This document shows positions 36,791 to 64,000 of a stretch of 64,000 nucleotides of DNA, one piece after another. The notes under the pieces were generated by a model that was given only the letters and a program-made list of their open reading frames with translations, did no database searches and had not been told where the DNA came from. The DNA is taken from positions 3,488,001 through 3,552,000 of the forward strand of contig CAVYRF010000002.1 of the NCBI GenBank assembly GCA_963770895.1, given 5' to 3'. A program made the translations under genes and the position numbers. Numbering within the stretch: position 1 is the stretch's first letter; each line of letters starts with the position of its first letter. Origin of the DNA: an uncultured Acidobacteriota bacterium (lineage in GTDB: Bacteria; Acidobacteriota; Thermoanaerobaculia; Multivoradales; UBA5704).

Positions 36791-36945
36791 GCGGGCTCCT
36801 TGGGGAGGCGGGTGGAAGGTGGCGGGCGCGGGGACAAGGGCGCGGCCGTCACAGTAACAGTGGCGGAGTGCTGTCCACAAGTGATCAAATCGGTACACAA
36901 GAGGAGTGAGGCGGGACAGCTGCGCCTCAATAAGGAGACCATGCC

Positions 36946-37515
36946 ATGGCCATCGTGACCTACCGCGAATCGGGGCGGGTGCTCGAAGATGCAGCGGCGA
37001 TCGGCGACGCCCTGGCGCCGTTGGGGATCTGGTATCGCCGCTTCGAGGGCTCGGATCAGCTTGCCGACGACGCCACCGATCAGCAGATCCTGGACGCGTA
37101 TCGCGAACCGATCGAACAGCTCATGGCCGAAGGCGGCTACGTCACCGCCGACGTGATCAATATCAAGCCCGAGGTGCCCGGCCTGGAAGGCATGCTCAAC
37201 CGCTTCAACAAAGAGCACTACCACGACGAAGACGAAGTGCGTTTCATCGTCCACGGCCGCGGCCTGTTTCACATCCACCCGCAGAGCGAGCCGCGCGAGG
37301 TGTTCAGCATCGAAGTGCTCAAGGGCGACATGATCCGCGTGCCGCGCGGCACCCATCATTGGTTCGACCTGTGCGCCGATCGCACCATCCGCGCCATCCG
37401 CCTGTTTCAGGACCAGTCGGGCTGGACGCCGCACTACACCCAAAGCGGCACCGACGCGCGCCACCAGCCGCTCTGCTTCGGGCCGCGCTACCTGCCGCAC
37501 GCTCCGGCGCTCTAG
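36946..37515 (+). CDS. mtnD: Acireductone dioxygenase
   Basis: EHYHDEDEVRF, GDMIRVPRGTHHWF, AIRLFQDQSGW. Confidence 0.92.
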   Translation: MAIVTYRESGRVLEDAAAIGDALAPLGIWYRRFEGSDQLADDATDQQILDAYREPIEQLMAEGGYVTADVINIKPEVPGLEGMLNRFNKEHYHDEDEVRFIVHGRGLFHIHPQSEPREVFSIEVLKGDMIRVPRGTHHWFDLCADRTIRAIRLFQDQSGWTPHYTQSGTDARHQPLCFGPRYLPHAPAL

Positions 37516-37528
37516 GAAAGCCTTGCCG

Positions 37529-38329
37529 ATGGCTCTACCGGTTGGATTGCGCGGCGTGCTGACCGATATCGAAGGCACGACGACGGCGATCTCGTTCGTC
37601 TACCAGACGCTCTTTCCGTACGCGGCGGCGCGGCTGGATGCCGTGTGCGCGCGGGCCGCGGCGGCGAGCGGCGCCGGCGGCGACAGCGCCGGCGACGTCG
37701 CACAGGTTGCCGCCGCGGTGGACCTGCTGCGCGGCGAATACGCCGCCGAGGCGGCTGCTGCCGCCGCGCCGCTGCCCGACTTTGGCGACGGTGCGCCCTA
37801 CGCCCACTACCTGATGGCTCAGGACCGCAAATCGACCGGCCTCAAGGCGCTCCAGGGCTTGATCTGGAAGCACGGCTACGACAGCGGCCGGCTGGTCAGC
37901 CAGGTCTTTGACGACGTGCCGCCGGCGCTCGCCGCCTGGCGGGCGGCGGGGCTGCGCCTGCGGGTGTTCTCTTCGGGCAGCCGGCAGGCGCAGCAGCAGC
38001 TGTTTGCGCGCACCGAGCACGGCGACCTGACGGCGCTCTTCGACGGCTTCCACGACACCACGACCGGGCCGAAGCGCGAGGTGGATGCCTACCGCAAGAT
38101 CGCGGCGGCCTTCGCGCTGCCGCCGGCGACGCTGCTGTTTCTGTCCGACGTGGCCGCGGAGCTGGACGCGGCGGCGGCGGCCGGGTACGCCACCGCGCTG
38201 GTGGTGCGGCCCGGCAACCCCGCGCAACCCGCGGGGCCTCACCCCGTGGTGCGCAGCTTTGACCAGCTGCTGCCGGATGCGGCGCCGGCCGCGGCGGCGG
38301 CGCTTGCTGGAAGGGATGGTGCGACATGA
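37529..38329 (+). CDS. mtnC: Enolase-phosphatase E1
   Basis: LTDIEGTT, LFPYA, DRKSTGLKALQGLIW, FSSGS, FLSDV.ELDAA. Confidence 0.92.
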   Translation: MALPVGLRGVLTDIEGTTTAISFVYQTLFPYAAARLDAVCARAAAASGAGGDSAGDVAQVAAAVDLLRGEYAAEAAAAAAPLPDFGDGAPYAHYLMAQDRKSTGLKALQGLIWKHGYDSGRLVSQVFDDVPPALAAWRAAGLRLRVFSSGSRQAQQQLFARTEHGDLTALFDGFHDTTTGPKREVDAYRKIAAAFALPPATLLFLSDVAAELDAAAAAGYATALVVRPGNPAQPAGPHPVVRSFDQLLPDAAPAAAAALAGRDGAT

Positions 38330-39408
38330 AAACGATCAAGGTGCTGGTGTGGGATCTGGATCACACGCTGTGGGACGGCGTGCTGCTGGAAGGCGACGCG
38401 GTGCGCCTGCGTCCCGCCGTCGAAGACCTGCTGCGCGAGCTGGACGCGCGCGGCATCCTGCTGTCGATCGCCAGCAAGAACGATCACGATGCGGCGATGG
38501 CCCGCCTGCGCGAGCTGGGCGTCGCCGATTATTTCATCTATCCGCAGATCAGCTGGAACGCCAAGTCGCAGGCGATCGCGAACATCGCCACCTCGATCAA
38601 CGTCGGCCGCGACGCCATCGCCTTTGTCGACGACGACCCGTTCGAACGTGACGAGGTGCGCCATGCGCATCCCGAGGTGACGGTGCTCGATGCGCAGGAG
38701 GTCGCCGAGCTTGCCGGGCGCCCTGAATTCATGCCGCGCTTCATCACCGACGAATCGGCGCTGCGGCGCCGCATGTATCAGGCCGATATCGAGCGCAACC
38801 GCGCCGAAGCGGATTTTCAAGGGCCGCAGGAAGAGTTCCTTGCCGGCCTGGGGATGAAGTTCACGATCCATCCGGCGCAGGAATCGGACCTGCGGCGTGC
38901 CGAAGAGCTGACGGTGCGCACCAACCAGCTGAACAGCTCGGGGCAGACCTATTCGTACGAGGAGCTGGACGCGTTCCGCCGCTCGCCGCACCACCTGCTG
39001 CTGGTGGCCGGGCTGACCGACCTGTACGGCACCTATGGCAAGATCGGCCTGGCGCTGATCGAAACGCAGCCGGACGTGTGGACGCTCAAGCTGCTCCTGA
39101 TGTCGTGCCGCGTCATCTCGCGCGGCGTCGGCAGCATCCTGGTCAGCCACATCCTGCAGCTTGCGAAGGCGGCCGGAGCGCGGTTTCAGGCGGAATTCAA
39201 ATCGACGTCGCGCAACCGGATGATGCTTGTGACCTACAAGTTTTCCGGTTTCCGCGAGGTGGCCAAAAACGGCGAGCTGCTGGTGTTCGAGCACCCCCTG
39301 ACCGGCGTGCAGCCGTTCCCCGCCTATGTCGATGTGGATCTTTCGGCGGGCGGCGAGGACGCGGCGCCCGCACCGGCAGATCAGCCGGCGATTCTGGCAT
39401 CACGATGA
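38326..39408 (+). CDS. fkbH: FkbH-like glyceryl transferase/phosphatase (HAD-IIIC)
   Basis: VWDLDHTLWDG, SIASKND, FVDDDPFER, RTNQLNSSG, LLMSCRVISRG; ATGA overlap with mtnC. Confidence 0.9.
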   Translation: MKTIKVLVWDLDHTLWDGVLLEGDAVRLRPAVEDLLRELDARGILLSIASKNDHDAAMARLRELGVADYFIYPQISWNAKSQAIANIATSINVGRDAIAFVDDDPFERDEVRHAHPEVTVLDAQEVAELAGRPEFMPRFITDESALRRRMYQADIERNRAEADFQGPQEEFLAGLGMKFTIHPAQESDLRRAEELTVRTNQLNSSGQTYSYEELDAFRRSPHHLLLVAGLTDLYGTYGKIGLALIETQPDVWTLKLLLMSCRVISRGVGSILVSHILQLAKAAGARFQAEFKSTSRNRMMLVTYKFSGFREVAKNGELLVFEHPLTGVQPFPAYVDVDLSAGGEDAAPAPADQPAILASR

Positions 39409-39421
39409 GGGAGGAGACACA

Positions 39422-40360
39422 TTGCAGACGATAGGGGTCATCGGCGCCGGGGTCATGGGAACCGGCGTCGCACAGGACGTTGCACAACACGGACGACAGG
39501 TGATCCTGATCGACCTGGACGACGCCCGGCTCGAACGGGCAAAACGCGAGATCCGCGCCAACCTGCGCATGCAGGGCTTCTTCCGCCCGCCGGCCGCGGC
39601 CGCGGCTGCGACCGCGGCGACCATGGCGGCGGGGGCAGCCGCGGCACCGGCGGCGGCCAAGCCGGCCGCGGGTCCGCTCGGCGGCGGCAGCCCCGCGGTC
39701 CTGGCGCGCATCCAGTTCACCACCGACTATGCTCAATTGGCGGCGGCCGACTTCGTGGTCGAGAACGTCGTCGAAAAGTGGCCGGTCAAACAGGGCGTCT
39801 ACAAGCTCCTGGACGCGCACTGCCCGCCCGAATGTGTGTTTGCCGCCAACACCTCGGCGATCTCGATCACCAAGATCGGCGGCGCCACCGGCCGCCCCGA
39901 CCGCGTGCTCGGCATGCATTTCATGAACCCGGTGCCGCTCAAGCCGATGGTCGAGGTGATCCGCGGCTTTCATACCTCCGAAGCGACGCTGGCGCGGGCG
40001 CACCAATTCCTGGCGCTGCTCGGCAAGGAGGGCATCGTGGTCAACGACATGCCCGGCTTTGTCACCAACCGCGTGCTGATGCTCACCATCAACGAAGCGA
40101 TCTTCCTGGTGCAGGACCAGGTGGCGGCGCACGACGACGTCGATCGCATTTTCAAGGGCTGCTTCGGCCATAAGATGGGGCCGCTCGAAACCGGCGACCT
40201 GATCGGCCTGGACACCATCCTGTTTTCGCTGGAAGTGCTGTACGAAAGCTACAACGACGACAAATACCGGCCCTGCCCGCTGTTGCGCAAGATGGTCGAC
40301 GCCGGTCTGCACGGCCGCAAGAGCGGTCGCGGCTTCTACACCTACGATACGGCGGACTAG
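39422..40360 (+). CDS. fkbK: 3-hydroxyacyl-ACP dehydrogenase (FkbK/ZmaG-like)
   Basis: GAGVMGTG, ANTSAI, GMHFMNPVP, PGFVTNRVL, MGPLETGDLIGLDT; TTG start. Confidence 0.85.
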   Translation: MQTIGVIGAGVMGTGVAQDVAQHGRQVILIDLDDARLERAKREIRANLRMQGFFRPPAAAAAATAATMAAGAAAAPAAAKPAAGPLGGGSPAVLARIQFTTDYAQLAAADFVVENVVEKWPVKQGVYKLLDAHCPPECVFAANTSAISITKIGGATGRPDRVLGMHFMNPVPLKPMVEVIRGFHTSEATLARAHQFLALLGKEGIVVNDMPGFVTNRVLMLTINEAIFLVQDQVAAHDDVDRIFKGCFGHKMGPLETGDLIGLDTILFSLEVLYESYNDDKYRPCPLLRKMVDAGLHGRKSGRGFYTYDTAD

Positions 40361-40366
40361 AGAGCC

Positions 40367-40636
40367 ATGAACGACGTTCAAACCCACATCAAGACCTTTC
40401 TGTCGCGCTTTTTCCGCAATCACGACCTGCAGCCCGACGAAGACATCTTCGCCCTGGGCTTCGTCAACTCGCTGCTCGCCATGCAGCTGGTCAACTTCGT
40501 CGAAAAGGAGTTCGGCGTCACCATCGAAGACGAAGACCTCGACCTGGACAACTTCCGCACCCTGCACGCCATCGACGCCCTGGTCGAGCGCAAGCGCGCC
40601 GGCGGCGCCCCCGCCCCGGCCCCGGCCGCGGGTTAG
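40367..40636 (+). CDS. fkbJ: Stand-alone acyl carrier protein (FkbJ/ZmaD-like)
   Basis: DIFALGFVNSLLAMQLV..EKEFG..DLDLDNFRT; NSL phosphopantetheine site typical of this ACP class. Confidence 0.88.
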   Translation: MNDVQTHIKTFLSRFFRNHDLQPDEDIFALGFVNSLLAMQLVNFVEKEFGVTIEDEDLDLDNFRTLHAIDALVERKRAGGAPAPAPAAG

Positions 40637-40653
40637 CAGGGACGGCGCCGCCG

Positions 40654-41829
40654 ATGAGCAGCGAAGCGCCCAGGGACGGGGACGGCGATCCCGGCATGCG
40701 CCTGGAACTGTCGGCGGCGCAGCGCGATGCGCGCGAGCGCTGCCGCCAGTTTGTCGCCGAATGGGTGGCGCCGCACGCGGGCGAATGGGACCGGGCGGGC
40801 CGCATGCCGCCGCAGGTGATCGACCAGGTGCGGCAGCGCGGCTACCTGGGCTCCCACCTGGCGCCGCAGCTGGGCGGCGGCGGCCTCGACCCCATCGCCT
40901 ACGGCCTGATCACCGAACAGATCGGGCGCGGCTGCTCGTCGCTGCGCTCGCTGCTCACCGTGCACGACATGGTGAGCGAAGCGATCCGCCGGTGGGGGAG
41001 CCCGTACCTCAAGCGCGAGGTGGTGCCGCGCCTGGCGCGCGCTGAGCTGCTGGCAGCGCTGGCGCTGTCGGAACCCGACGTCGGCAGCGACGCCGCCTCC
41101 GTCCAGACCGTCGCAGAGCGCGATGGCGACGCCTACGTGCTGCACGGGCGCAAGCGGTGGATCACCTTCGGCATGGTCGCCGACCTGTTTCTGGTCTTCG
41201 CCCGCTGCGGCGGTCAGGTCGCCGCCTTCGCCGTGCCGGCCGACGCCGCGGGTCTGACCCGCCAGCCGATCACGACCGTCGTCGGCACCCGCGCCTCCCA
41301 CCTGGCCGAGCTCACCTTCGACGGTTGCCGGGTGGCGCCCGAGCACCTGGTCGGGCGCGTCGGCTTCGGCTTTACCCACGTCGCCCTGACCGCCCTCGAC
41401 CACGGCCGCTACAGCGTCGCCTGGGGCGCCGTGGGCATCGCCCAGGCCTGCCTGGACGCCTGCCTGGCCTACACCGCGGAGCGCCAGCAGTTCGGCAAAC
41501 CGATCGCCGGCCACCAGCTGGTGCAGCAGAAGCTCACCCGCATGATCGTCGACGTCCGCGCCGCCCGCCTGCTCTGCTGCCGCGCCGGCTACCAGCGCTC
41601 GATCGGCGCCCCCGACGCCGCGGGCGAAACCCTGATCGCCAAGTACCACGCCTCGCGCGCCGCCACCAGCGCCGCCAACGATGCGGTGCAGCTGCACGGC
41701 GCCAACGGCCTTTCCCAGGACTACCCGGTCGAGCGCTACCTGCGCGACGCCAAGGTCACCGAGATCATCGAAGGCAGCACCCAGATCCAGGAGGTCGCCA
41801 TCGCCGCCTATCCGCCGGGCGACCTGTGA
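40654..41829 (+). CDS. fkbI: Acyl-ACP dehydrogenase (FkbI/ZmaE-like)
   Basis: GRGCSSLRSLLTVH, ALSEPDVGSDA, GRKRWITFG, RDAKVTEIIEGSTQIQ. Confidence 0.88.
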   Translation: MSSEAPRDGDGDPGMRLELSAAQRDARERCRQFVAEWVAPHAGEWDRAGRMPPQVIDQVRQRGYLGSHLAPQLGGGGLDPIAYGLITEQIGRGCSSLRSLLTVHDMVSEAIRRWGSPYLKREVVPRLARAELLAALALSEPDVGSDAASVQTVAERDGDAYVLHGRKRWITFGMVADLFLVFARCGGQVAAFAVPADAAGLTRQPITTVVGTRASHLAELTFDGCRVAPEHLVGRVGFGFTHVALTALDHGRYSVAWGAVGIAQACLDACLAYTAERQQFGKPIAGHQLVQQKLTRMIVDVRAARLLCCRAGYQRSIGAPDAAGETLIAKYHASRAATSAANDAVQLHGANGLSQDYPVERYLRDAKVTEIIEGSTQIQEVAIAAYPPGDL

Positions 41830-54477: not shown

Positions 54478-54617
54478 GGCACTCCTCGCGGAGCGCAACT
54501 GCAAAAGCCGGGCCGGCAGCCGTTGCGCGGTTCGTGCCGGGAACGCCGCGCGTTGCCGCGGCGAGCGCGGAGAGACGACGAGCGCGCACCTATATTCAGG
54601 CGGCCAGGAGAGCTCGA

Positions 54618-57600
54618 TTGCCGGCAGATGGATGTAAAAGGCATGACGAAATCGCTGCGACTCTGCGTCGGCAGGTGGCGCGCGTTTTGGATGTCGATGC
54701 CGCACGGCTGCCGGCGGACCGCCCGCTGGTGGCGTTGGGCCTGGATTCGCTGGCCGCGGCCGAGCTCGCCGCGGCGATCGAAGAGGTCTTCGGCACGCCG
54801 CTGGAGCTTGCGGCGCTGCTTGCCGGCCCCACCCTGGACGAGCTGACCGAAAGCATTTGCGCCGCCGCGGCGCCTGCGGCTGTTGCGCCTCCCGCGGCCG
54901 CCGCGGCGCCGGCCGCCGCCGCGCCGCCAGCAGCGCCGCCGCCAGCAACCGCGGCGCCGCGGGCAACTGCGCTGCCGGCCGCGAACGATGCGGCGCCGCC
55001 GGCGGGCGAGCCGATGTCCTGGGGGCAGCGGGCGCTGTGGCTGGTCGAGCGGATGGCGCCCGACAATCGCGCCTACATCCTGGCCGGCGCGGCGCGGGTG
55101 CGCGGCGGCTTCGACGTGCCCAACCTGCGCCGTGCGGTGGCGCTGCTGGTCGAGCGCCACGCGGCGCTGCGCGCCAACTTCGTCGAGGGCGGCGACGGCG
55201 TGGTGGTGCAGGTGACGCGCGACGCGCCGGCCTACGGGTTCGTGGAGCTGGACGGCGCGGCCCTGCGCCAGGCGAGCGACCCGGAGGTGGCCGTGGCACT
55301 GGCGCGCGAGGCCTACGCGCCGTTCGACCTGGCGGCGGAGCCGCTGCTGCGCCTGGTCGTCTGCCGGCGCGGCGGCACGGATCATTGGCTGGCGCTGGCG
55401 GTGCACCACACGGTGGCCGACTTCTGGTCGATGGGGGTCCTGGTCGCTGACCTGGGCGCGCTGCTGCTCGGCAGGAGCCTGCCGCCGCCGGCCGCCACCT
55501 ACCGCGACTTCGTGCGCGCCCAGGGCGAGCTGCTGGCGTCGCCCGCGGGCGAGCGGCTGGCGGCGTACTGGCGGGAGGCGTTGCCGGCGGGGTTGCCGGT
55601 GCTCGACCTGCCCACCGACCGGCCGCGGCCGGCGCTGCAAACCTTCCGCGGCGAGACGCGCTGGTGCGAGCTGCCGGCGGCGGTCGTGGCGCGCCTGCGG
55701 GCGCTCGGCAGGCAGCACGGCGCGACCTCGTTCATGACCCTGCTGGCGGCGTTCCTGGTGCTGCTGGAGCGGCTCTCCGGCCAGCCGCGGATCCTGGTGG
55801 GCACGCCGACGTCGGGGCGCTCGTCGCCGGCGCTGGCCGGGGTGGTCGGCTACTTCGTCAACCCGGTGGTGTTGCGCGGCGACGTCGCGGGCGATCCTGA
55901 CTTCGCGACGCTGCTGTCGCGCGTGCGGCAGGAAGCGCTGGCCTCCCTGGCGCACCAGGGGATGCCGTTTCCGCTGGTCGCCGAGCGCCTGGCGGCGGAG
56001 CGCGACCCCAACCGGCCGCCGGTGTTTCAGGTCCTGTTCGGGCTCTACCGCGAGCGCCGCCGCGCCGACCAGGGGCTGGCGGGGTTCGCCCTGGGAGCGG
56101 GGGGCGTCGGGCTCCAGCTCGGCGGTGGCGGCGGCGGCGCCGGCGATGCTGGCGCTGCCGGCGATGCTGGCGATGTGGGCGCCGCCGGCGGCCTTGTCCT
56201 CGAATCGGTGGCCCTGGTGCGGCCGGGGGCGCAGTTCGATCTCAGCCTGTCGCTGGGCGAGATCGGCGGCGCGCTGGGCGCCACGCTGGAGCTCAACGCC
56301 GACCTGTTCGACGCCGCGACCGGGCTGCGCCTGCTCGGCCAGTTCACCGTGCTGGCGGCGGCGATCGCGGAGCTTGGCGCCGGCACCGGTGCCGGCGGGG
56401 TGTCGCAGCTGCCCTGGCTGACAGCGGCCGAAACGCAGCAGCTCCTGGAATGGAACGACACCGCCGCGGCGCTGCCGCGCCAGGTCTGCCTGCACCAGCT
56501 GATCGAAGCGCAGGTGGCGCGGACGCCCGGCGCGATCGCCTGCGAGGCGCCGCTTGGCGGCGGCGGCTGGGAGAGCCTCACCTATGGCGAGCTGGACGCG
56601 CGCGCGGCGCGCCTGGCCGGCCGGCTGCGCCGCCAGGGGGTGGGGCCCGAAACGGTGGTCGCGATCGCTGCCGAGCGGTCGCTGAGCCTGATCGTCGGGC
56701 TGCTCGCCATCCTGAAGGCGGGCGGCGCCTACCTGCCGCTCGATCCCGCCTACCCGCCCGACCGCCTGCGGTACATGCTGCAAGACTCGGGCGCGCCGGT
56801 GCTGCTGCGGCAGCGGCGGGCGGCGCCGGAGGATGGCGCCGGCGGCGCGCCGGCGGGCGGCCCGGCGGATTTGCCGGACCTGGCGGAGCTGGCGGCGGCG
56901 AGCGGTGTGGCGGACCTGGACCTGGACGAACCGGCAGCGGACGAGCCGTGGCAGCGGCCGGCAGTCGGCGCGCAAAACCTGGCGTACGTGATCTACACGT
57001 CGGGTTCGACCGGGCGCCCCAAGGGGACGATGAACACCCACCGCGGCATCGTCAACCGCCTGCTATGGCTGCAGGAGAAGGACGGGCTGGACGCGACCGA
57101 CCGCCTGCTGCAGAAGACGCCGGCAAGCTTCGACGTGTCGGTGCCCGAGCTGTTCTGGCCGCTCCTGGCGGGCGCGCGGCTGGTGATGGCGGCTCCCGGC
57201 GGTCACCGCGACACCGCCTACCTGCTGGCGACGCTGGCCGAGCGGCAGATCACCGTGGTGCACTTCGTGCCGGCGATGATGCGGGTGTTTTTCGAGCACC
57301 TGGCGGCGGCGGCCGGTGCCGCGGCGGGGGCGCCGGCGCTGCCGCGGCTGCGGCGCGTCCTGGCGAGCGGCGAGGCGCTGCCCTGGGACCTGCAGCAGCA
57401 GTGCGCGGCGCTCCTGGGCGTGCCGCTGCACAACCTGTACGGCCCCACCGAAGCGGCGGTCGAGGTGACGCATTGGGCTTGCGATCCGGACAGCCGGCGC
57501 CAGCTGGTGCCGATCGGCCGGCCGGTGGCCAACACCGCGATCGTGCTGCTCGATCACCGCGGCGCGCGTGTGCCGCAGGGCGTCCCCGGCGAGCTGCACA

Positions 57601-60600
57601 TCGGCGGCGTGCAGCTGGCGCGCGGCTATCTCGGCCGCCCTGAGCTGACCGCCGAACGGTTCGTCCCCGATCCGCTGGCACAGGATGCCGCGGCGGCGGG
57701 CGCGCGGCTGTACCGCACCGGCGACCTGGCGCGGTACCTGGCGGACGGCGCCGTGGACTACCTGGGGAGGGCGGACGACCAGGTGAAGGTGCGCGGCTTC
57801 CGTATCGAGCTGGGCGAGATCGAGGCGGTGCTGGCCGCCCATCCGGCGGTCGCCGCGGCGGCCGTGGCGGTGCGGGCGGTGGGCGGCGGCGGTGGCGCGG
57901 CGGACCGGCGGCTGGTCGGCTACGTGGTGGCGCGCCCGCCGGGCGTGGCGGCCGCGAGCCCCACCGACGACGAGCTGCGCGCGTGGTTGGGCGAGAAGCT
58001 GCCCGATTACATGGTGCCGGTGCACTTCCTGCGGCTCGACCGGCTGCCGTCCAGCCCCAGCGGCAAGCTCGACCGCCGCGCCCTGCCGGCGCCGTCCCGC
58101 CGGCTGCCGGGCGGCGGTGCGACGGCGCCGCGCACGGCGACCGAGGCGGCGTTGGCCAGGCTCTTCGGCGAGGTGCTGGGCCTGGCCGGCGGCGGGGCGG
58201 GTGCCGGCGCGCCGCCGCGGGTCGGCGTCGACGACAGTTTTTTTGCCTTGGGCGGCCATTCGCTGCTGGGCACGCGGCTGCTGGCGCGGGTGCGGCGCGA
58301 CCTGGGCGTCGAGCTGCCGCTGGCCGACCTCTACCGCGAGCCGACCGTCGCCGGCCTGGCGCGGGCCGTCGCCGCGGCAGCGGCCGCGCCCGGCGCCGCC
58401 GCGGCAGCGGCCGTTGGCGCAGCGCCGCGCCCGGTTCGCGGCGGCGGCCTGGCGCCGCTGTCGTTCGCGCAGGAGCGCCTGTGGTTCCTCGACCGGCTGG
58501 AGCCGGGCAGCGCCGTCTACAACATGCCCGCGGCGGTGCGCCTGGACGGCATGCTATCGCCGCCGGCGCTGGCCGCGGCGCTCACCGCGATCGTCGGGCG
58601 GCACCAGGCGCTGCGCAGCCGCTTCCTGGTCGCCGCCGACGGCTCGCCGCGGCAGATGGCCGCGCCGGCGCGGCCGGTCGCGCTGCCGCTGATCGACCTG
58701 ACGGCTTTGTCGGAGGCCTTGGCGACCCCGGAGCGGCCGGGGGAAGCGGCAGTCCCGGAGATTCCGGAAACCCCGGAAAACCCGGACGGCGCGGACGTCT
58801 CGAAGGCCTCGGGGACCCCGCGGACGCCGGAGATGCCGCGGACCCCCGCGGGCACGGCGGCGGCGGATCTGCTCGCCGCGCTGGGGGCGGCGCCGTTCGA
58901 CCTGGCGGCCGGGCCGCTGCTGCGCACGACCCTGCTGCGGTTGAGCGCGCGCCGGCACCTGCTGCTCATCGTGTTGCACCACGTCGTCGGCGATGGCTGG
59001 TCGCTGGGCGTGCTGTTCGCGGAGCTTGCCGCCTTCTACGGCGCGGCGATGGGCGGTTGGGGTGGCGACGCCGTGCCGCCGCCGGCGCTGGCGTTCCAGT
59101 ACAGCGATTTTGCACGCTGGCAGCGCCAGCGGTTGGCGGGCGAGCGGCTGGCGGCGGAGCTCGCCGCCTGGCGCTCGGCGCTGGCCGGGGCGCCGGTCCA
59201 CCTGGCCCTGCCGACCGACCGGCCGCGGGCGGAGCGCCGCGGCACGCGCGGCGCCGTGTGTCGGGTGGCGGTGGGCAAGGAGCTGAGCGCCGCGGTGGCG
59301 GCGCTGGCCGCGGCGCACGGCGCGACACCGTTCATGGTGCTGCTGGCCGCCTGGGCGGCGGTGCTGGCGCGCGCCGGCGGCCAGGACGATCTGCTGGTGG
59401 GGGCCGCGGTCGCCAACCGCACGCTGGTCGAGCTCGAGCCGCTCATCGGCTGCTTCGTCAACACCCTGGCCCTGCGCTGCGACCTGGCGGGCGCCCCGAG
59501 CGCCGTGCCGCTGCTCGCCCGCGTCCGCCGCACGACCCTGGAAGCGTTTGCGCACCGGGAGCTGCCATTCGAAAAGTTGGTCGAAGACCTGGCGCTGCCG
59601 CCCGACCTGTCGCGCACGCCGCTGGTGCAGACGCTCTTCGTGCTGCAGGAAGCGCCGCTCGATCTGCGCCTGTCCGGCCTGAAACTGGAAGTCGAGGAGG
59701 TCCCCACCCACACCGCCAAGTTCGACCTGATGCTCGACCTGACCGCGACCGCCGCCGGTTTCTCCGGCATGCTCGAATACGCGACCGGCCTGTTCGACGC
59801 GGCGACGGCAGAGCGCCTGGCGGGCCGGCTGGTCGGCACCCTGGCGGCGATGGTGGCCGATCCCGCGGCGCCGGTCGTCGACCTCGCGGCGCTGGCGCCG
59901 GAGGAGCGGGCGCAGGCCGCGGCCGAGCCGCCGCCGCGCGTCGCGGCGGCAGGTGCGGGGCGCGGCGGGAGGGCAGGAGCGGCCGCAGCCGCCGGAACGG
60001 GGTTGGGTGAGGCGCCGGGCGGCATGGCGCGGGCGGCGGCCGCCGGGCCGCCGCCCGTCGCGGCGCCTCCTGCCGGGTGGGTCGAAACGGCGCTGGCGCG
60101 GCTGTTCGCCGAGCTGCTGGGCATCGACCCCGCGGCGGTGGGCGCGCGCGACAGCTTCTTCGCCCTGGGTGGGCACTCCCTGCTCGCCGCACGTCTGCTG
60201 GCGCGGGTGCGGCGCGACCTGGGGGTCGACGTGCCGCTGGCCGAGCTCTACCGGGAGCCGACCGTGGCGGGCCTGGCGCGCGCTGTTGCCGCAGAGGCTG
60301 CGGCGGCCGCGGTGGGAGCGGCAGGCGCAGTGGGCGGCGATGCCTTCGCGGCGCCGCCGGCCCCGTCGTCGCGGCCGCGGCCGGACAGCGGCCAGGGCGG
60401 CCCGGCGCCGCTGTCGTTCGCCCAGGAGCGGCTGTGGTTTCTCGACCGCCTGGAGCCGGGCGGCGCCGTCTACAACATGCCCGCGGCGGTGCGCCTGGAC
60501 GGTCCGCTGTCGCTGCCGGCGCTGGCGGCGGCGCTGTCCGCGATCGTCGCCCGGCACGCGGCGCTGCGCAGCCGCTTCGTGCCGGCGGCCGACGGTTCAC

Positions 60601-63600
60601 CGCGGCAGGTGGCGGCGCCGCCGCGGCCGATCGCGGTGCCGCTGATCGACCTGAGGGCGCTGCCACCGGTGGCGCCGGACCCCGAGGCGCTGGAGACCTT
60701 GCCACCCGGGGAGTCCCCGCAGGCAGCGGTCAGCGGGGAGACCATGGCGTCCTGCAACCCGGCGCGGACGCCGGCGAGCGGCGCGGAGGCGGCGCGCCAG
60801 CTGGCCGCGCTGGCGCTGGTGCCGTTCGACCTGGCGGCGGGCCCCCTGCTGCGCGCCGCGGTCCTGCGGCTGGGCGAGCGCCGGCACCTGTTGGCGGTTT
60901 GCGTACACCACATCGCTGCCGACGGCTGGTCGCTGGGAGTGCTGCTCGGCGAGCTTGCTGCCTTCTATAACGCGGCGCTCGCCGGCTGGGGCGCGGCCGT
61001 GCCGCCGCCGGCGCTGGCGTTCCAGTATGCCGACTTTGCGCGCTGGCAGCGCGAGCAGATGGCGGGCGAGCGCCTGGCGGCGGAGCTTGCCGCCTGGCGT
61101 GCGGCGCTGGCCGGCGCGCCGGTTGAGCTGAGCCTGCCGACCGATCGGCCGCGGCCCGAGCGCCGCGGCACCCGCGGCGAGCGCCTGCGGGTGGCGTTGG
61201 GCAAGGATCTGAGCGCCGCGGCGGCAGCGCTGGCCGCGGCGCACGGTGCGACGCCGTTCATGCTGCTGCTGGCCGCCTGGGCGGCGGTGTTGGGGCGCGC
61301 CGGGGACCAGGACGACCTGCTGGTGGGCGCCGCGGTCGCCAACCGCACCCTGGTCGAAGTCGAGCCGCTCATCGGCTGCTTCGTCAACACCCTGGCCCTG
61401 CGCTGCGACCTGGCGGGCGCGCCGAGCGCCGCGACGCTGCTGACCCGCGTGCGGCGCGCGACGCTGGAAGCGTTTGCGCACCAGGAGCTGCCGTTCGAAA
61501 AGCTGGTCGAAGACCTGGCGCTGCCGCCCGAGCTGTCGCGCACGCCGCTGGTGCAGACGCTCTTCGTGCTGCAGAACGCGCCGCTCGCGCTGCGCGTGCC
61601 GGGCCTGGCGGTGGCGGTGGTGGAGGTCGCGACCGGCACCGCCAAGTTCGATCTGACGCTGGACCTGGGTGAAACGGCGGCGGGATTTGGCGGCGCCATC
61701 GAGTACGCGACCGACCTGTTCGACGCGGCGACGGTCGAGCGCCTGGCTGGCCGGTTCGTCGACGTGCTGGCGGCGATGACGGCCGATCCGGCGGCGCCGG
61801 TCCTGGACCTCGCGCCGCTGGCACCGGGGGAACGGACGCAGCTCCTGGTGCCTGGCCGCCGCGCGGCGCCGCCGCCCCGGGTCGCGGCGCGACGGGTGCC
61901 GTTGTTGGCGTCGTTGGCGCCAGGGGCAACAGTGGGGGCGAGGACCGGCGGCGCCGGAGCCGACGCTGCGCGGTTCGCAGGCGCAGAGGCTGGAGCGGCG
62001 GGGACGGTGGCCGGGGCGGCGACCGGCACCGTCGAAGCCGTCGTCGCGCGGCTGTTTGCCGAGGTGCTGGGATTGACCCCGGACGAGATCGCCAGCGCCG
62101 CCGACGGTGGTGCGTTTATTGCCGAGAACGGCAATTTTTTTGCGCTCGGCGGTAATTCCCTTTCGGCCGCGCGGCTGCTGGTGCGGGTGCGTGCCGAGCT
62201 GGGCGTCGATCTGCCGGTCGCCCTGGTGTTTCAGCGTCCGACGGTGGCCGGCATCGCGGCGGCGGCAAAGGCGGCGCTCGCGGCACTTGCTGCGCCCACG
62301 GACCTCGCGAACCCCGCGGACCCCGCGCAGCGCCGGCGTGCGGTGCGGCCGCCGCTCGTGGCGCTGCCGCCCGCGGCGCGGCCGGGTCCGCTCGTGCCCA
62401 GCTTTGCGCAGGAACGGATGTGGTTTCTCGATCAGCTGGAGCCCGGCAGCGCCACCTACAACATGCCCGGCAGCCTACGGCTGACGGGGCCGCTGGCCGT
62501 GGCGCCGCTGGCCGCCGCGCTCGCCGGCGTGCGGCGGCGCCACGAGGTGCTGCGCAGCCGCTTCGCGGCGGGCGACGGCGCGCTCGCGGTGTGGGTGGCG
62601 GCCACGCCGCCGGCGGCGGACCTGGCCCTGCCGGTGATCGACCTGGCGGCGCTGCCGGCCGCCGTGGGCGCGGCGGCGGCGGCGCGGCTGGCGCAGGCCG
62701 AGGCGCGCCGCCCGTTCGACCTGGCGGCGGGGGCGCTGCTGCGCACCGTGCTGCTGCGGGTGGCGGCGGACGATCACCTTCTGCTGCTGACGATGCACCA
62801 CGTGGTGAGCGACGGCGCATCGTTGGAGCTGGTGGCGCGCGAGGCGGCGGCGCTCTATACCGCGGGTCTTGGCGGCGCGCCGCCCGATCCGCGGGCGGTG
62901 CCGCCGCTCGCCGTGCAGTATGCCGACTACGCCGCCTGGCAGCGCGGCTGGCTGGGCAGCAGCACCCTGGCCGCGGAGGTGGCCTGGTGGCGCGAGCGGC
63001 TGGCGGGAGCGCGCGGCGCGCCGCCGCGGCTCGATCTGCCGGCCGACGGGCCGCGGGCGGCGGCGCCCGGCTCGCGCGGCGCCCGCTGCGCGGCGGCGGT
63101 GCCGGCGACGGTGACGGCGGCGCTGCGCACGCAGGCGGTGCGGCAGGGGGCTGCGCTCTTCATGGCGCAGGCGGCGGCGCTCGGCGTCCTGCTGCTGCGC
63201 GCCACCGGCCAGAGCGACCTGGCGCTCGGCACGCCGGTCGCCAACCGCGGCGTGCAGGCGCTCGCCGACCTGGTCGGGCTGTTCGTCAACACGCTGGTGC
63301 TGCGGCTCGACCTGGGCGGCAATCCGACCTTCCGGACGCTGCTGGCGCGGGTGCGCGACCAGGCGCTGGCCGCCTACGATCACCAGGAGCTGCCCTTCGA
63401 GCAGCTGGTGGCCGAGCTTGGCCTGCGGCAGGACGGGGCGGCGACGCCGCTGTTCCAGGTCATGCTGGCGGAGCAGCCGCGGCTGCCGGTGCCGGTTCTG
63501 GCCGGGCTTGCCGTTGCAGCGTCTGCCGGCGACAGCGGCACCGCCAAGTTCGACCTGTCGCTGGCCCTGACGCCGGTCGCCGGCGACGCCCTGGCCGCCA

Positions 63601-64000
63601 CGTTCACCTATCGCGCCGGCCTGTTCCAGGGGGCGACCGTGGCGCGCCTGGCGGGGCACTGGCAGAACCTGCTGGCGGGGATCGCCGCGGCGCCCGACAC
63701 GCCGCTGTCCGAGCTGCCCCTGCTGTCCGCGGCGGAGCGCCACCAGCTGCGCTGCGAATGGAACGCCGCCCCCTGGGAGCCGGCGGCGGGTCTGCTGATG
63801 CACACGCCGTTCGAGCGCCAGGCGATCCGCGTGCCGGACGCGGTGGCGGTGGTCGCGGTGCACGACGGCGGCGACGGCCCGGCGGCGATCCGCGGGGCGG
63901 AGCACCTGACGTATGCCGCGCTTGCCGCGCGCGTGGCGCGCCTGGCGGCGCGGATCGCGGCGTACGGCGCCGGCCCCGAGCGGGTGGTGGGCATCTGCGC
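54618..64000 (+). CDS. Non-ribosomal peptide synthetase, T0-C1-A1-T1-C2-T2-C3-T3-C4-A2..., runs off the window end
   Basis: Frame 3 from TTG 54618 (AGGAG RBS). Motifs: GLDSL (Ser 54747), HHTVADFWS, YTSGSTGRPKG (~56994), YGPTE, YRTGD, GGHSL (58260), HHVVGDG (58977), GGHSL (60177), HHIAADG (60906), GGNSL (62157), HHVVSDG (62796), EWN/LTY at the start of A2. All motifs checked are in one frame. Confidence 0.92.
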   Translation, partial: MPADGCKRHDEIAATLRRQVARVLDVDAARLPADRPLVALGLDSLAAAELAAAIEEVFGTPLELAALLAGPTLDELTESICAAAAPAAVAPPAAAAAPAAAAPPAAPPPATAAPRATALPAANDAAPPAGEPMSWGQRALWLVERMAPDNRAYILAGAARVRGGFDVPNLRRAVALLVERHAALRANFVEGGDGVVVQVTRDAPAYGFVELDGAALRQASDPEVAVALAREAYAPFDLAAEPLLRLVVCRRGGTDHWLALAVHHTVADFWSMGVLVADLGALLLGRSLPPPAATYRDFVRAQGELLASPAGERLAAYWREALPAGLPVLDLPTDRPRPALQTFRGETRWCELPAAVVARLRALGRQHGATSFMTLLAAFLVLLERLSGQPRILVGTPTSGRSSPALAGVVGYFVNPVVLRGDVAGDPDFATLLSRVRQEALASLAHQGMPFPLVAERLAAERDPNRPPVFQVLFGLYRERRRADQGLAGFALGAGGVGLQLGGGGGGAGDAGAAGDAGDVGAAGGLVLESVALVRPGAQFDLSLSLGEIGGALGATLELNADLFDAATGLRLLGQFTVLAAAIAELGAGTGAGGVSQLPWLTAAETQQLLEWNDTAAALPRQVCLHQLIEAQVARTPGAIACEAPLGGGGWESLTYGELDARAARLAGRLRRQGVGPETVVAIAAERSLSLIVGLLAILKAGGAYLPLDPAYPPDRLRYMLQDSGAPVLLRQRRAAPEDGAGGAPAGGPADLPDLAELAAASGVADLDLDEPAADEPWQRPAVGAQNLAYVIYTSGSTGRPKGTMNTHRGIVNRLLWLQEKDGLDATDRLLQKTPASFDVSVPELFWPLLAGARLVMAAPGGHRDTAYLLATLAERQITVVHFVPAMMRVFFEHLAAAAGAAAGAPALPRLRRVLASGEALPWDLQQQCAALLGVPLHNLYGPTEAAVEVTHWACDPDSRRQLVPIGRPVANTAIVLLDHRGARVPQGVPGELHIGGVQLARGYLGRPELTAERFVPDPLAQDAAAAGARLYRTGDLARYLADGAVDYLGRADDQVKVRGFRIELGEIEAVLAAHPAVAAAAVAVRAVGGGGGAADRRLVGYVVARPPGVAAASPTDDELRAWLGEKLPDYMVPVHFLRLDRLPSSPSGKLDRRALPAPSRRLPGGGATAPRTATEAALARLFGEVLGLAGGGAGAGAPPRVGVDDSFFALGGHSLLGTRLLARVRRDLGVELPLADLYREPTVAGLARAVAAAAAAPGAAAAAAVGAAPRPVRGGGLAPLSFAQERLWFLDRLEPGSAVYNMPAAVRLDGMLSPPALAAALTAIVGRHQALRSRFLVAADGSPRQMAAPARPVALPLIDLTALSEALATPERPGEAAVPEIPETPENPDGADVSKASGTPRTPEMPRTPAGTAAADLLAALGAAPFDLAAGPLLRTTLLRLSARRHLLLIVLHHVVGDGWSLGVLFAELAAFYGAAMGGWGGDAVPPPALAFQYSDFARWQRQRLAGERLAAELAAWRSALAGAPVHLALPTDRPRAERRGTRGAVCRVAVGKELSAAVAALAAAHGATPFMVLLAAWAAVLARAGGQDDLLVGAAVANRTLVELEPLIGCFVNTLALRCDLAGAPSAVPLLARVRRTTLEAFAHRELPFEKLVEDLALPPDLSRTPLVQTLFVLQEAPLDLRLSGLKLEVEEVPTHTAKFDLMLDLTATAAGFSGMLEYATGLFDAATAERLAGRLVGTLAAMVADPAAPVVDLAALAPEERAQAAAEPPPRVAAAGAGRGGRAGAAAAAGTGLGEAPGGMARAAAAGPPPVAAPPAGWVETALARLFAELLGIDPAAVGARDSFFALGGHSLLAARLLARVRRDLGVDVPLAELYREPTVAGLARAVAAEAAAAAVGAAGAVGGDAFAAPPAPSSRPRPDSGQGGPAPLSFAQERLWFLDRLEPGGAVYNMPAAVRLDGPLSLPALAAALSAIVARHAALRSRFVPAADGSPRQVAAPPRPIAVPLIDLRALPPVAPDPEALETLPPGESPQAAVSGETMASCNPARTPASGAEAARQLAALALVPFDLAAGPLLRAAVLRLGERRHLLAVCVHHIAADGWSLGVLLGELAAFYNAALAGWGAAVPPPALAFQYADFARWQREQMAGERLAAELAAWRAALAGAPVELSLPTDRPRPERRGTRGERLRVALGKDLSAAAAALAAAHGATPFMLLLAAWAAVLGRAGDQDDLLVGAAVANRTLVEVEPLIGCFVNTLALRCDLAGAPSAATLLTRVRRATLEAFAHQELPFEKLVEDLALPPELSRTPLVQTLFVLQNAPLALRVPGLAVAVVEVATGTAKFDLTLDLGETAAGFGGAIEYATDLFDAATVERLAGRFVDVLAAMTADPAAPVLDLAPLAPGERTQLLVPGRRAAPPPRVAARRVPLLASLAPGATVGARTGGAGADAARFAGAEAGAAGTVAGAATGTVEAVVARLFAEVLGLTPDEIASAADGGAFIAENGNFFALGGNSLSAARLLVRVRAELGVDLPVALVFQRPTVAGIAAAAKAALAALAAPTDLANPADPAQRRRAVRPPLVALPPAARPGPLVPSFAQERMWFLDQLEPGSATYNMPGSLRLTGPLAVAPLAAALAGVRRRHEVLRSRFAAGDGALAVWVAATPPAADLALPVIDLAALPAAVGAAAAARLAQAEARRPFDLAAGALLRTVLLRVAADDHLLLLTMHHVVSDGASLELVAREAAALYTAGLGGAPPDPRAVPPLAVQYADYAAWQRGWLGSSTLAAEVAWWRERLAGARGAPPRLDLPADGPRAAAPGSRGARCAAAVPATVTAALRTQAVRQGAALFMAQAAALGVLLLRATGQSDLALGTPVANRGVQALADLVGLFVNTLVLRLDLGGNPTFRTLLARVRDQALAAYDHQELPFEQLVAELGLRQDGAATPLFQVMLAEQPRLPVPVLAGLAVAASAGDSGTAKFDLSLALTPVAGDALAATFTYRAGLFQGATVARLAGHWQNLLAGIAAAPDTPLSELPLLSAAERHQLRCEWNAAPWEPAAGLLMHTPFERQAIRVPDAVAVVAVHDGGDGPAAIRGAEHLTYAALAARVARLAARIAAYGAGPERVVGIC
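58230..61830 (+). repeat. Intragenic tandem duplication of a T-C unit (period ~1920 bp)
   Basis: Long near-identical stretches, e.g. ctgtcgttcg(c/g)caggagcg.ctgtggtt.ctcgaccg.ctggagccggg and gccgctcatcggctgcttcgtcaacaccctggccctgcgctgcgacctggcgggcgc, occur in both copies. Confidence 0.85.

Follow-up and report, generated by a model that had tools for sequence, protein, structure and literature searches.

In the genome of an uncultured Acidobacteriota bacterium we examined a stretch of 64,000 nucleotides (the window, G000:C2:3488001-3552000; the genome has 8.16 Mb in 3 contigs and 71% GC) that carries the 5' part of a nonribosomal peptide synthetase (NRPS) gene. Modules 2 and 3 of this NRPS are consecutive modules composed of a condensation (C) and a carrier (T) domain and have no adenylation (A) domain, and the unit T2-C3 is a tandem copy of T1-C2. 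The NRPS is a lipopeptide-type line of a very NRPS-rich soil bacterium. For the loading of its orphan carriers, we give about an even chance to the reading in which a Ser-type A domain of the same protein, either A1 or A4, charges T2 and T3. In what follows, C1 and C2 before a colon or an underscore denote contigs and otherwise condensation domains.

The gene is a single open reading frame (ORF) that begins with a GTG codon at window position 54534 on the + strand and is free of stops to window-equivalent 80096, a length of 8520 amino acids (aa) or 25.6 kb with a third-position GC content (GC3) of 0.91. It ends 16 kb beyond the window, which holds the 5' 9.5 kb. Domain boundaries were obtained with hidden Markov models (HMMs) built on the NRPS's own domains and were then converted to window coordinates (Table 1). 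These HMMs, Pfam and the sequence motifs agree on the order T0-C1-A1-T1-C2-T2-C3-T3-C4-A2-T4-C5-A3-T5-C6-A4-T6-C7-A5-T7-C8-A*-T8-TE, where TE is a thioesterase and A* an A remnant. An earlier note on this DNA had read an unbroken frame with the string A1-T1-C2-T2-C3-T3-C4-A2; both hold, and the string is now extended by T0-C1 upstream and by five modules and the TE downstream. Within the first 3155 aa, Pfam reports six stretches of Condensation and four of PP-binding while AMP-binding occurs only twice, as A1 and as the start of A2 at the window end. Over the whole protein, three of the eight modules (2, 3 and the last) have no working A domain.

The ten nearest C domains of C1 in the genome are all the first C domain after an N-terminal T, and 28 ORFs of the genome begin with T-C. 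N-acyl initiation thus seems to be the local norm.

The absence of the A domain from both modules was apparent from Pfam as well as from our own HMM. In the two C-to-C segments Pfam gave PP-binding alone at E<=10. When our A-domain HMM was run with filters off, nothing significant was found in linker 1 or linker 2 (E 0.56 and 0.16), while in the same run a true 87-aa A remnant of a paralog scored 1e-9. On the other hand, the domains that remain are complete. The condensation motifs are HHVVGDG at aa 1482 (C2), HHIAADG at aa 2125 (C3) and HHVVSDG at aa 2755 (C4), and the carrier motifs are GGHSL at aa 1240 (T1) and 1879 (T2) and GGNSL at aa 2539 (T3). C2 and C3 match Pfam Condensation at E=0 and both cover positions 1-443 of our C-domain HMM; T2 and T3, predicted phosphopantetheine carriers, match PP-binding at 2.1e-18 and 2e-14. 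The two statements made before from the letters alone, that the A domain is missing twice and that the T serines and HHxxxDG motifs are intact, are therefore upheld, and modules 2 and 3 are confirmed as consecutive C-T modules without an A domain.

What replaces the A domain is in each case a short linker, starting with LAALAPEER at aa 1784 and LAPLAPGER at aa 2426, in which Ala, Gly and Pro make up 73% (linker 1) and 56% (linker 2) of the residues as compared to 38% in the whole protein. The first ~25 aa of the two linkers are homologous and PPPRVAA is common to both, after which they diverge. When both linkers and the A1-T1 junction were aligned as DNA, homology was limited to the first ~100 nucleotides (nt) of the two linkers.

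The tandem repeat has a period of 1917-1953 nt, with blocks at 78-91% nucleotide identity. T1 and T2 are 79.7% identical in aa and C2 and C3 75.8%. In contrast, T3 (55-59%) and C4 (50%) are no nearer to the duplicated domains than to other domains of the NRPS, and thus only one T-C unit was copied. The simplest history is that a single A-less module C2-T3 existed and that T1-C2 plus the start of the linker was then duplicated once in tandem. These data support the earlier proposal that the modules arose by T-C duplication. The duplication of ~1.9 kb had also been called recent, and here the word can be kept only in a relative sense, since its age corresponds to a synonymous divergence (dS) of 0.3 (NG86) to 0.85 (YN00).

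To judge selection we used the ratio of nonsynonymous to synonymous divergence (dN/dS), by NG86 unless marked otherwise; at a GC3 of ~0.9 this method probably underestimates dS. The ratio was 0.21 for T1/T2, and for C2/C3 it was 0.55 (NG86) and 0.16 (YN00). A control pair, C5/C6, which is equally diverged and in which both domains belong to complete modules, gave 0.36 (NG86) and 0.147 (YN00). Judged by these ratios, both T-C copies are under purifying selection. The comparison of C2 with C3, a check that the earlier note had proposed, gave values well below 1 that match the control by YN00 and do not indicate decay. With their motifs intact and ratios like those of the control pair, modules 2 and 3 look maintained and not decaying.

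Table 1. Features of the NRPS gene within the window (window coordinates).
Feature	Position	Strand	Description	Evidence
5' part of NRPS gene	54534..64000	+		ORF, GC3 0.91
T0	54651..54857	+	N-terminal carrier resembling an acyl carrier protein, LGLDS	Pfam, motif, HMM
C1	55008..56426	+	Starter-type condensation domain, HHTVADF	Motif, HMM, C-domain neighbours
A1	56484..58088	+	Adenylation domain, pocket DVPHLSLVE (Ser-like, Pro at third position)	Pfam, HMM, pocket alignment
T1	58143..58373	+	Cognate carrier of A1, GGHSL	Motif, HMM
C2	58452..59900	+	Condensation domain of A-less module 2, HHVVGDG	Motif, HMM
Linker 1	59901..60080	+	60 aa, 73% Ala/Gly/Pro, without A remnant	HMM, Pfam
T2	60081..60290	+	GGHSL, 79.7% identical to T1	Pfam, HMM
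C3	60405..61826	+	A-less module 3, HHIAADG, 75.8% identical to C2	Motif, HMM
Linker 2	61827..62030	+	68 aa, 56% Ala/Gly/Pro, without A remnant	HMM, Pfam
T3	62031..62270	+	Older carrier, GGNSL, 55-59% identical to T1/T2	Motif, HMM
C4	62394..63731	+	Condensation domain of complete module 4, HHVVSDG	Pfam, HMM
A2 start	63852..64000	+	Pocket DVVTVGRVS, runs off the window	HMM, pocket alignment

Because the region is repetitive, the A-less junctions could have been produced by faulty assembly, and the authors of the rhodamide study raise the same caveat for their own A-less modules (PMC11586506). The public reads available here came from two runs at low depth, as Logan contigs of only 88-423 bp, and none of them spans a whole junction. 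However, the two copies differ at 9-22% of their nucleotides, which assemblers resolve easily; the linkers at the junctions are unique sequence and in frame, within a frame that is open for 25.6 kb; and similar A-less modules with different linkers occur four more times in the genome and also in other genomes. Run X2, possibly the source sample, adds weaker evidence of the same kind: two of its contigs, each with a single mismatch, reach from linker 1 into T2 (60048-60295) and from linker 2 into T3 (61988-62214). In run X1, C3 and C4 have contig matches of ~96-98%, which suggests a near relative in another soil sample. Many further apparent joints in the read contigs had sides of 20-28 nt and look like cross-matches between NRPS repeats. 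Mis-assembly is therefore very unlikely. It could also be speculated that modules 2 and 3 are real but are passengers, either since the chain is passed from T1 to a domain beyond them (module skipping) or since the line was newly crippled and is decaying. This would fit the lack of a working A domain in three of eight modules, the different stages of A loss seen across the genome and the lack of an ortholog in 40 relatives, so that the gene is young and could be a failed recombinant. Some A-less carriers elsewhere in the genome look relaxed (T4 of the NRPS C1_1190302 has a dN/dS of 0.94), and the NG86 ratio of C2/C3 is somewhat above that of the control pair, so some relaxation is possible there too. 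We nevertheless consider this reading unlikely, if still a serious one. The frame is open, every HHxxxDG and GGxS motif of the A-less modules is intact, and the ratios stay low for T1/T2 and equal to the control for C2/C3 by YN00 despite a substantial divergence. The last module shows drift in its dead A remnant but not in C8, T8 or TE, which is what continued use of the C-T parts would predict. In myxochromide S the carrier of the skipped module is defective; in modules 2 and 3 no visible inactivation of a carrier or C domain was found.

If the A-less modules are in use, their carriers would be loaded from elsewhere. No other A-bearing ORF of at least 400 aa was found in C2:3423516-3542474 or C2:3568093-3677359 (~100 kb on each side), no A domain was found among the neighboring genes scanned with Pfam, and the sole MbtH-like gene of the genome lies ~1 Mb from the NRPS. 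As no stand-alone A domain lies nearby, the best reading is that the loader is one of the A domains of the line itself. When all A domains of the genome were aligned, the pocket residues read DVPHLSLVE in A1, DVVTVGRVS in A2, DAWFLGHVV in A3, DVWHMSLVD in A4 and DATKMGHVG in A5. Set against known specificity codes, A1 and A4 look Ser-like, A3 Leu-like and A5 Asn/Asp-like. From FFALGGHS to its end T2 is near-identical to T1, with 5 differences counted by eye, and the carrier face met by A1 is thus probably largely kept in T2.

The C domains point in the same direction. In the C-domain tree they follow the specificity of the next A domain: all seven nearest neighbors of C4 precede an A domain of the DVxxVGRxS type, like A2. 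Ser-coded modules make up 8 of the 17 full modules nearest to C2/C3 as compared to 40 of 222 genome-wide (hypergeometric P 0.004, which is overstated as paralogs are not independent), and this enrichment fits a run of Ser. As a separate observation, the pocket D-V/I-x-x-V/T/I-G-R-V/I-S occurs in ~14 modules including that of A2, and their C domains form a tight group.

In the mechanism we propose, T2 and T3 would be aminoacylated by A1, which lies directly upstream and whose own carrier was the template of T2, or by A4, and C2 and C3 would each add one further Ser. The product would be N-acyl-Ser-Ser-Ser-X-Leu-Ser-Asx-(residue 8), and residue 8 would likewise go onto the carrier of a module with a dead A domain. 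The substrate on T2 and T3 would be Ser, or whatever A1 truly activates. The T-C duplication would in this way have lengthened the peptide without duplication of an A domain. The earlier note had, as one of two options, A1 charging three carriers, and this is not supported in that form as A4, with its canonical Ser code, is an equal candidate. Its wider statement that A-less modules can be loaded by another A domain or in trans fared better in part: the A domain of the same line is favored and has experimental precedent in the accounts of related systems (PMC7539972, PMC11586506, 10.1101/560987), while an FkbH-dependent route was not supported (see below).

Several observations weigh against this mechanism. 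The third pocket position of A1 is Pro whereas it is Trp in 40 of the 40 Ser-coded A domains of the genome, and its substrate may have shifted away from Ser. The best solved relatives of A1 are the second A domain of LgrA (linear gramicidin synthase), then Txo2 and Txo1, with FscH and EntF lower. The Ser-coded neighbors of C2/C3 are distant (tree distance 1.1-1.4) and are related modules, and the assignments by reference code are tentative. No code is common to the A domains upstream of A-less modules, either in the source genome or in seven loci of other genomes. The rule that the same specificity is present elsewhere in the line fails for the last module, as the code of its paralog, DAHITTHVV, is without counterpart in A1-A5. 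Neither an ortholog nor a double A-less module was found in 40 relatives, 74 genome loci and 75 metagenome loci. Finally, we infer the identity of the loader of T2 and T3 from sequence.

One alternative is loading in trans, with an A domain of another NRPS, or a free A or A-T protein, charging T2 and T3 as in WS9326A and syringomycin. The genome offers ample material for this, with ~240 NRPS-type A domains and a few A-T or A-T-TE ORFs; the last module seems to need a specificity held by no A domain of the line; and A-T didomains that act in trans are documented (PMC7539972). However, the ~100 kb on either side hold no A-bearing ORF, the Pfam-scanned neighbors hold no candidate and the only MbtH-like gene is ~1 Mb off. 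Known trans loaders are usually clustered with their NRPS, and loading in trans is for these reasons rather improbable. Another possibility, raised for glyceryl groups in the earlier note, is that T2 and T3 accept glyceryl or hydroxymalonyl units derived from FkbH. The window does contain a cassette of the hydroxymalonyl/glyceryl-ACP (acyl carrier protein) type at 38263-41826 (+), encoding an FkbH domain protein (TIGR01686, 275 bits against a cut-off of 146.65), a 3-hydroxyacyl-CoA dehydrogenase, an ACP and an acyl-CoA dehydrogenase, and among the genes scanned in the window no polyketide synthase partner was seen for it. However, this cassette has its own ACP and is 12.7 kb upstream of the NRPS, behind genes for a GGDEF protein, a dehydrogenase, an M20 peptidase and an FG-GAP protein on mixed strands. 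An FkbH homologue (58-79% identity) occurs in 22 of the 40 relatives while the NRPS ortholog occurs in none. The FkbH genes are neither clustered nor co-inherited with the assembly line. Moreover, T2 was copied from T1, an ordinary amino-acid carrier, and C2 and C3 group with ordinary amino-acid C domains. Delivery from FkbH is thus very improbable, and the distance, the separate ACP and the presence in relatives without the NRPS all speak against a link. Directly upstream of the FkbH gene, at 36934-38326 (+), are genes for an ARD-family cupin and an acireductone synthase (TIGR01691, 208 bits), which are methionine-salvage genes.

Loss of A domains is not confined to this gene. The A-domain HMM had 255 matches in the genome, ~240 of them in NRPS genes, alongside 268 C domains. 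Thirteen of the 268 modules are A-deficient: in six a full C domain is followed directly by T and in seven by an A remnant, although some of these remnants are possibly split or interrupted A domains, for example C1_1029797 and, at the end of an ORF, C2_1923442. Several NRPS genes show up as overlapping stop-to-stop ORFs in different frames (such as C1:940728-956181 and C2:2119981-2142755); these may be assembly frameshifts or real gene boundaries and could inflate the count of A remnants at ORF ends. The longest remnants have ~200 aa and the shortest 87 aa, and in five the start falls at A-HMM positions 322-331. These starting points suggest that an in-frame deletion has recurred which runs from the C-A linker through core motif A5 to just before core motif A6. 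We also considered a special clade of C domains for A-less modules and rejected it: these C domains are scattered in the tree, each beside ordinary modules, which indicates that A loss was repeated and that there is no dedicated family of C-T modules.

The last module of the NRPS, C8-A*-T8-TE, is one of the intermediate states. A* is the C-terminal ~200 aa of an A domain (L009:14339-14947, window-equivalent 78339-78947) in which core motifs A6-A8 are recognizable, core motifs A1-A5 are absent and the lysine of motif A10 is replaced. When compared to C2_2132115, a paralog with a full A domain, A* is 63% identical (dN 0.26), C8 77%, T8 84% (dN/dS 0.14) and TE 72%. Judged by this paralog, the A domain that was lost had a code of the DAHITTHVV type.

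The closest relative of C2/C3 is found in a second paralog, C2_4105817 (C2:4105817-4128301), which reads T-C-A(DVWHISLVD)-T-T-C-A*-T-C-A(DIVNVGRIS)... It is 62% identical to the NRPS in C1, 72% in A1, 60% in C2/C3 and 65% in A2, and its third C domain is 63% identical to C4. In its second module only an 87-aa wreck of the A domain is left, with YRTGD changed to RRTGR and core motifs A8-A10 gone. An A-dead module behind a Ser starter has therefore persisted in two lines that are ~40% apart in protein sequence. The same paralog has a true tandem T-T, 63 aa apart, after its first A domain.

A third case is provided by C1_1190302 (C1:1190302-1212474) and C2_4060873 (C2:4060873-4099107), paralogous NRPSs that are 52-81% identical per domain over modules 1-5. 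In the former, modules 3 and 4, of which one carries an A remnant and one is A-less, correspond to two consecutive Gly-coded modules of the latter. They are the second pair of consecutive A-dead modules in the genome, and module 1 of C1_1190302 has kept a Gly-coded A domain. This comparison suggests that a line tolerates A loss as long as it still activates the amino acid concerned. Tentatively, and with more doubt than confidence, we propose a wider reading: bare T-C duplication would be a route to a homo-oligomer run that shares one A domain, A domains would in this lineage be deleted repeatedly where their amino acid is activated elsewhere in the protein, and sharing would be a regular economy and not a rare exception. 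In two other lines of the genome, C2:3935832-3952901 and C1:1518395-1526104, the order is T-C-A-T-C-T-C... and the second module is A-less; the C domains of these A-less modules are on long branches (tree distance ~1.4), and one of them is nearest to a starter-type C.

Outside the source genome, the 40 relatives gave only single T-C matches of 44-62% identity and no ortholog of the NRPS, and the arrangement C-T-C-T was absent from the ~150 loci examined. Single A-less modules do occur. A relative, G011, reads A-T-C-A-T-C-T-C-A-T..., in which the A-less module is again second after the starter, and a single A-less C-T module was found in 7 of 74 public-genome loci, from Acidobacteriota, a Longimicrobium metagenome-assembled genome and a Sorangium strain. 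This search was biased toward A-less junctions and one of the seven is perhaps the G011 locus, so that the counts are not additive. The nearest public-genome loci are labelled Acidobacteriota or Thermoanaerobaculia. Apparent full-length matches of ~1.6 kb in the genome loci proved, on re-scanning with the HMMs, to be one T-C unit hit by both ends of the query and not A-less junctions. In 75 metagenome loci, which were chosen via a T-C match, C was followed by A 127 times, by T in no case and by a remnant once, and there was no match to the C2 end or the linker part of the query. Literature searches gave no match for a C-PCP-C-PCP arrangement (PCP, peptidyl carrier protein), although this does not establish that a double A-less module is new to the literature.

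In the yersiniabactin synthetases HMWP2 and HMWP1, A-less modules of a heterocyclization domain and a PCP (Cy-PCP) follow an A-PCP unit. The NRPS described here is similar in that an A-less condensation-type domain and a carrier immediately follow a complete first module within one polypeptide. It differs in having ordinary C domains instead of heterocyclization domains and two A-less modules in direct succession in one protein, made by T-C duplication. The A domain of HMWP2 is described as incorporating three cysteines, one in cis and two onto other PCPs (PMC7539972); one A domain is thus proposed to serve several carriers with the same amino acid, which for the present NRPS we infer. The same source names viomycin, andrimid, syringomycin and yersiniabactin as systems in which A domains serve modules other than their own, and in the WS9326A synthetase of Streptomyces calvus it describes an A-less C-PCP module inside a multimodular NRPS, comparable to ours, that receives amino acids from two A-PCP didomains (PMC7539972). 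These didomains are encoded by dedicated genes in the cluster, whereas none was found near the present NRPS.

The thalassospiramide Ttm line of Tistrella is reported to have two A-less modules and to need no extra pathway-specific genes in a heterologous host (bioRxiv 10.1101/560987). As in our case, no stand-alone A gene is nearby, and the A domains of other modules supply the carriers there; on the other hand, its A-less modules are non-adjacent, and it is a hybrid trans-AT (acyltransferase) polyketide line with pass-back and skipping from another phylum. In the rhodamide synthetase of Rhodococcus, modules 5 and 12 are without an A domain and Ser is proposed to come from A6 or A9 (PMC11586506). 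It is likewise a lipopeptide NRPS with a starter C domain and two modules lacking a functional A domain that are proposed to be supplied with Ser by other modules, but these are neither consecutive nor duplicates of each other, and its authors do not exclude mis-assembly (PMC11586506). According to these accounts of yersiniabactin, thalassospiramide, rhodamide and WS9326A, the principle that an A-less module is served by the A domain of another module is already established. What is particular here is that two A-less modules are consecutive and were made by copying T-C alone, in a genome that holds a series of A-loss states.

The finding does not overturn the current understanding of these enzymes. 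It does bear on genome mining, as counting A domains would under-predict the length of the peptide of this line, in which five A domains serve eight modules. If a neighboring A domain does load T2 and T3, the NRPS would show cleanly how, in nature, a chain can be extended when no more than a carrier and a condensation domain is copied, a design that NRPS engineers could imitate. The 13 A-deficient modules among 268 extend from remnants of 200 aa to clean linkers, and paralogs show which A domain was lost. Such a series could reveal when the loss of an A domain is tolerated, and the rules of loading across modules could be tested on pairs of paralogs of which only one has kept the A domain.

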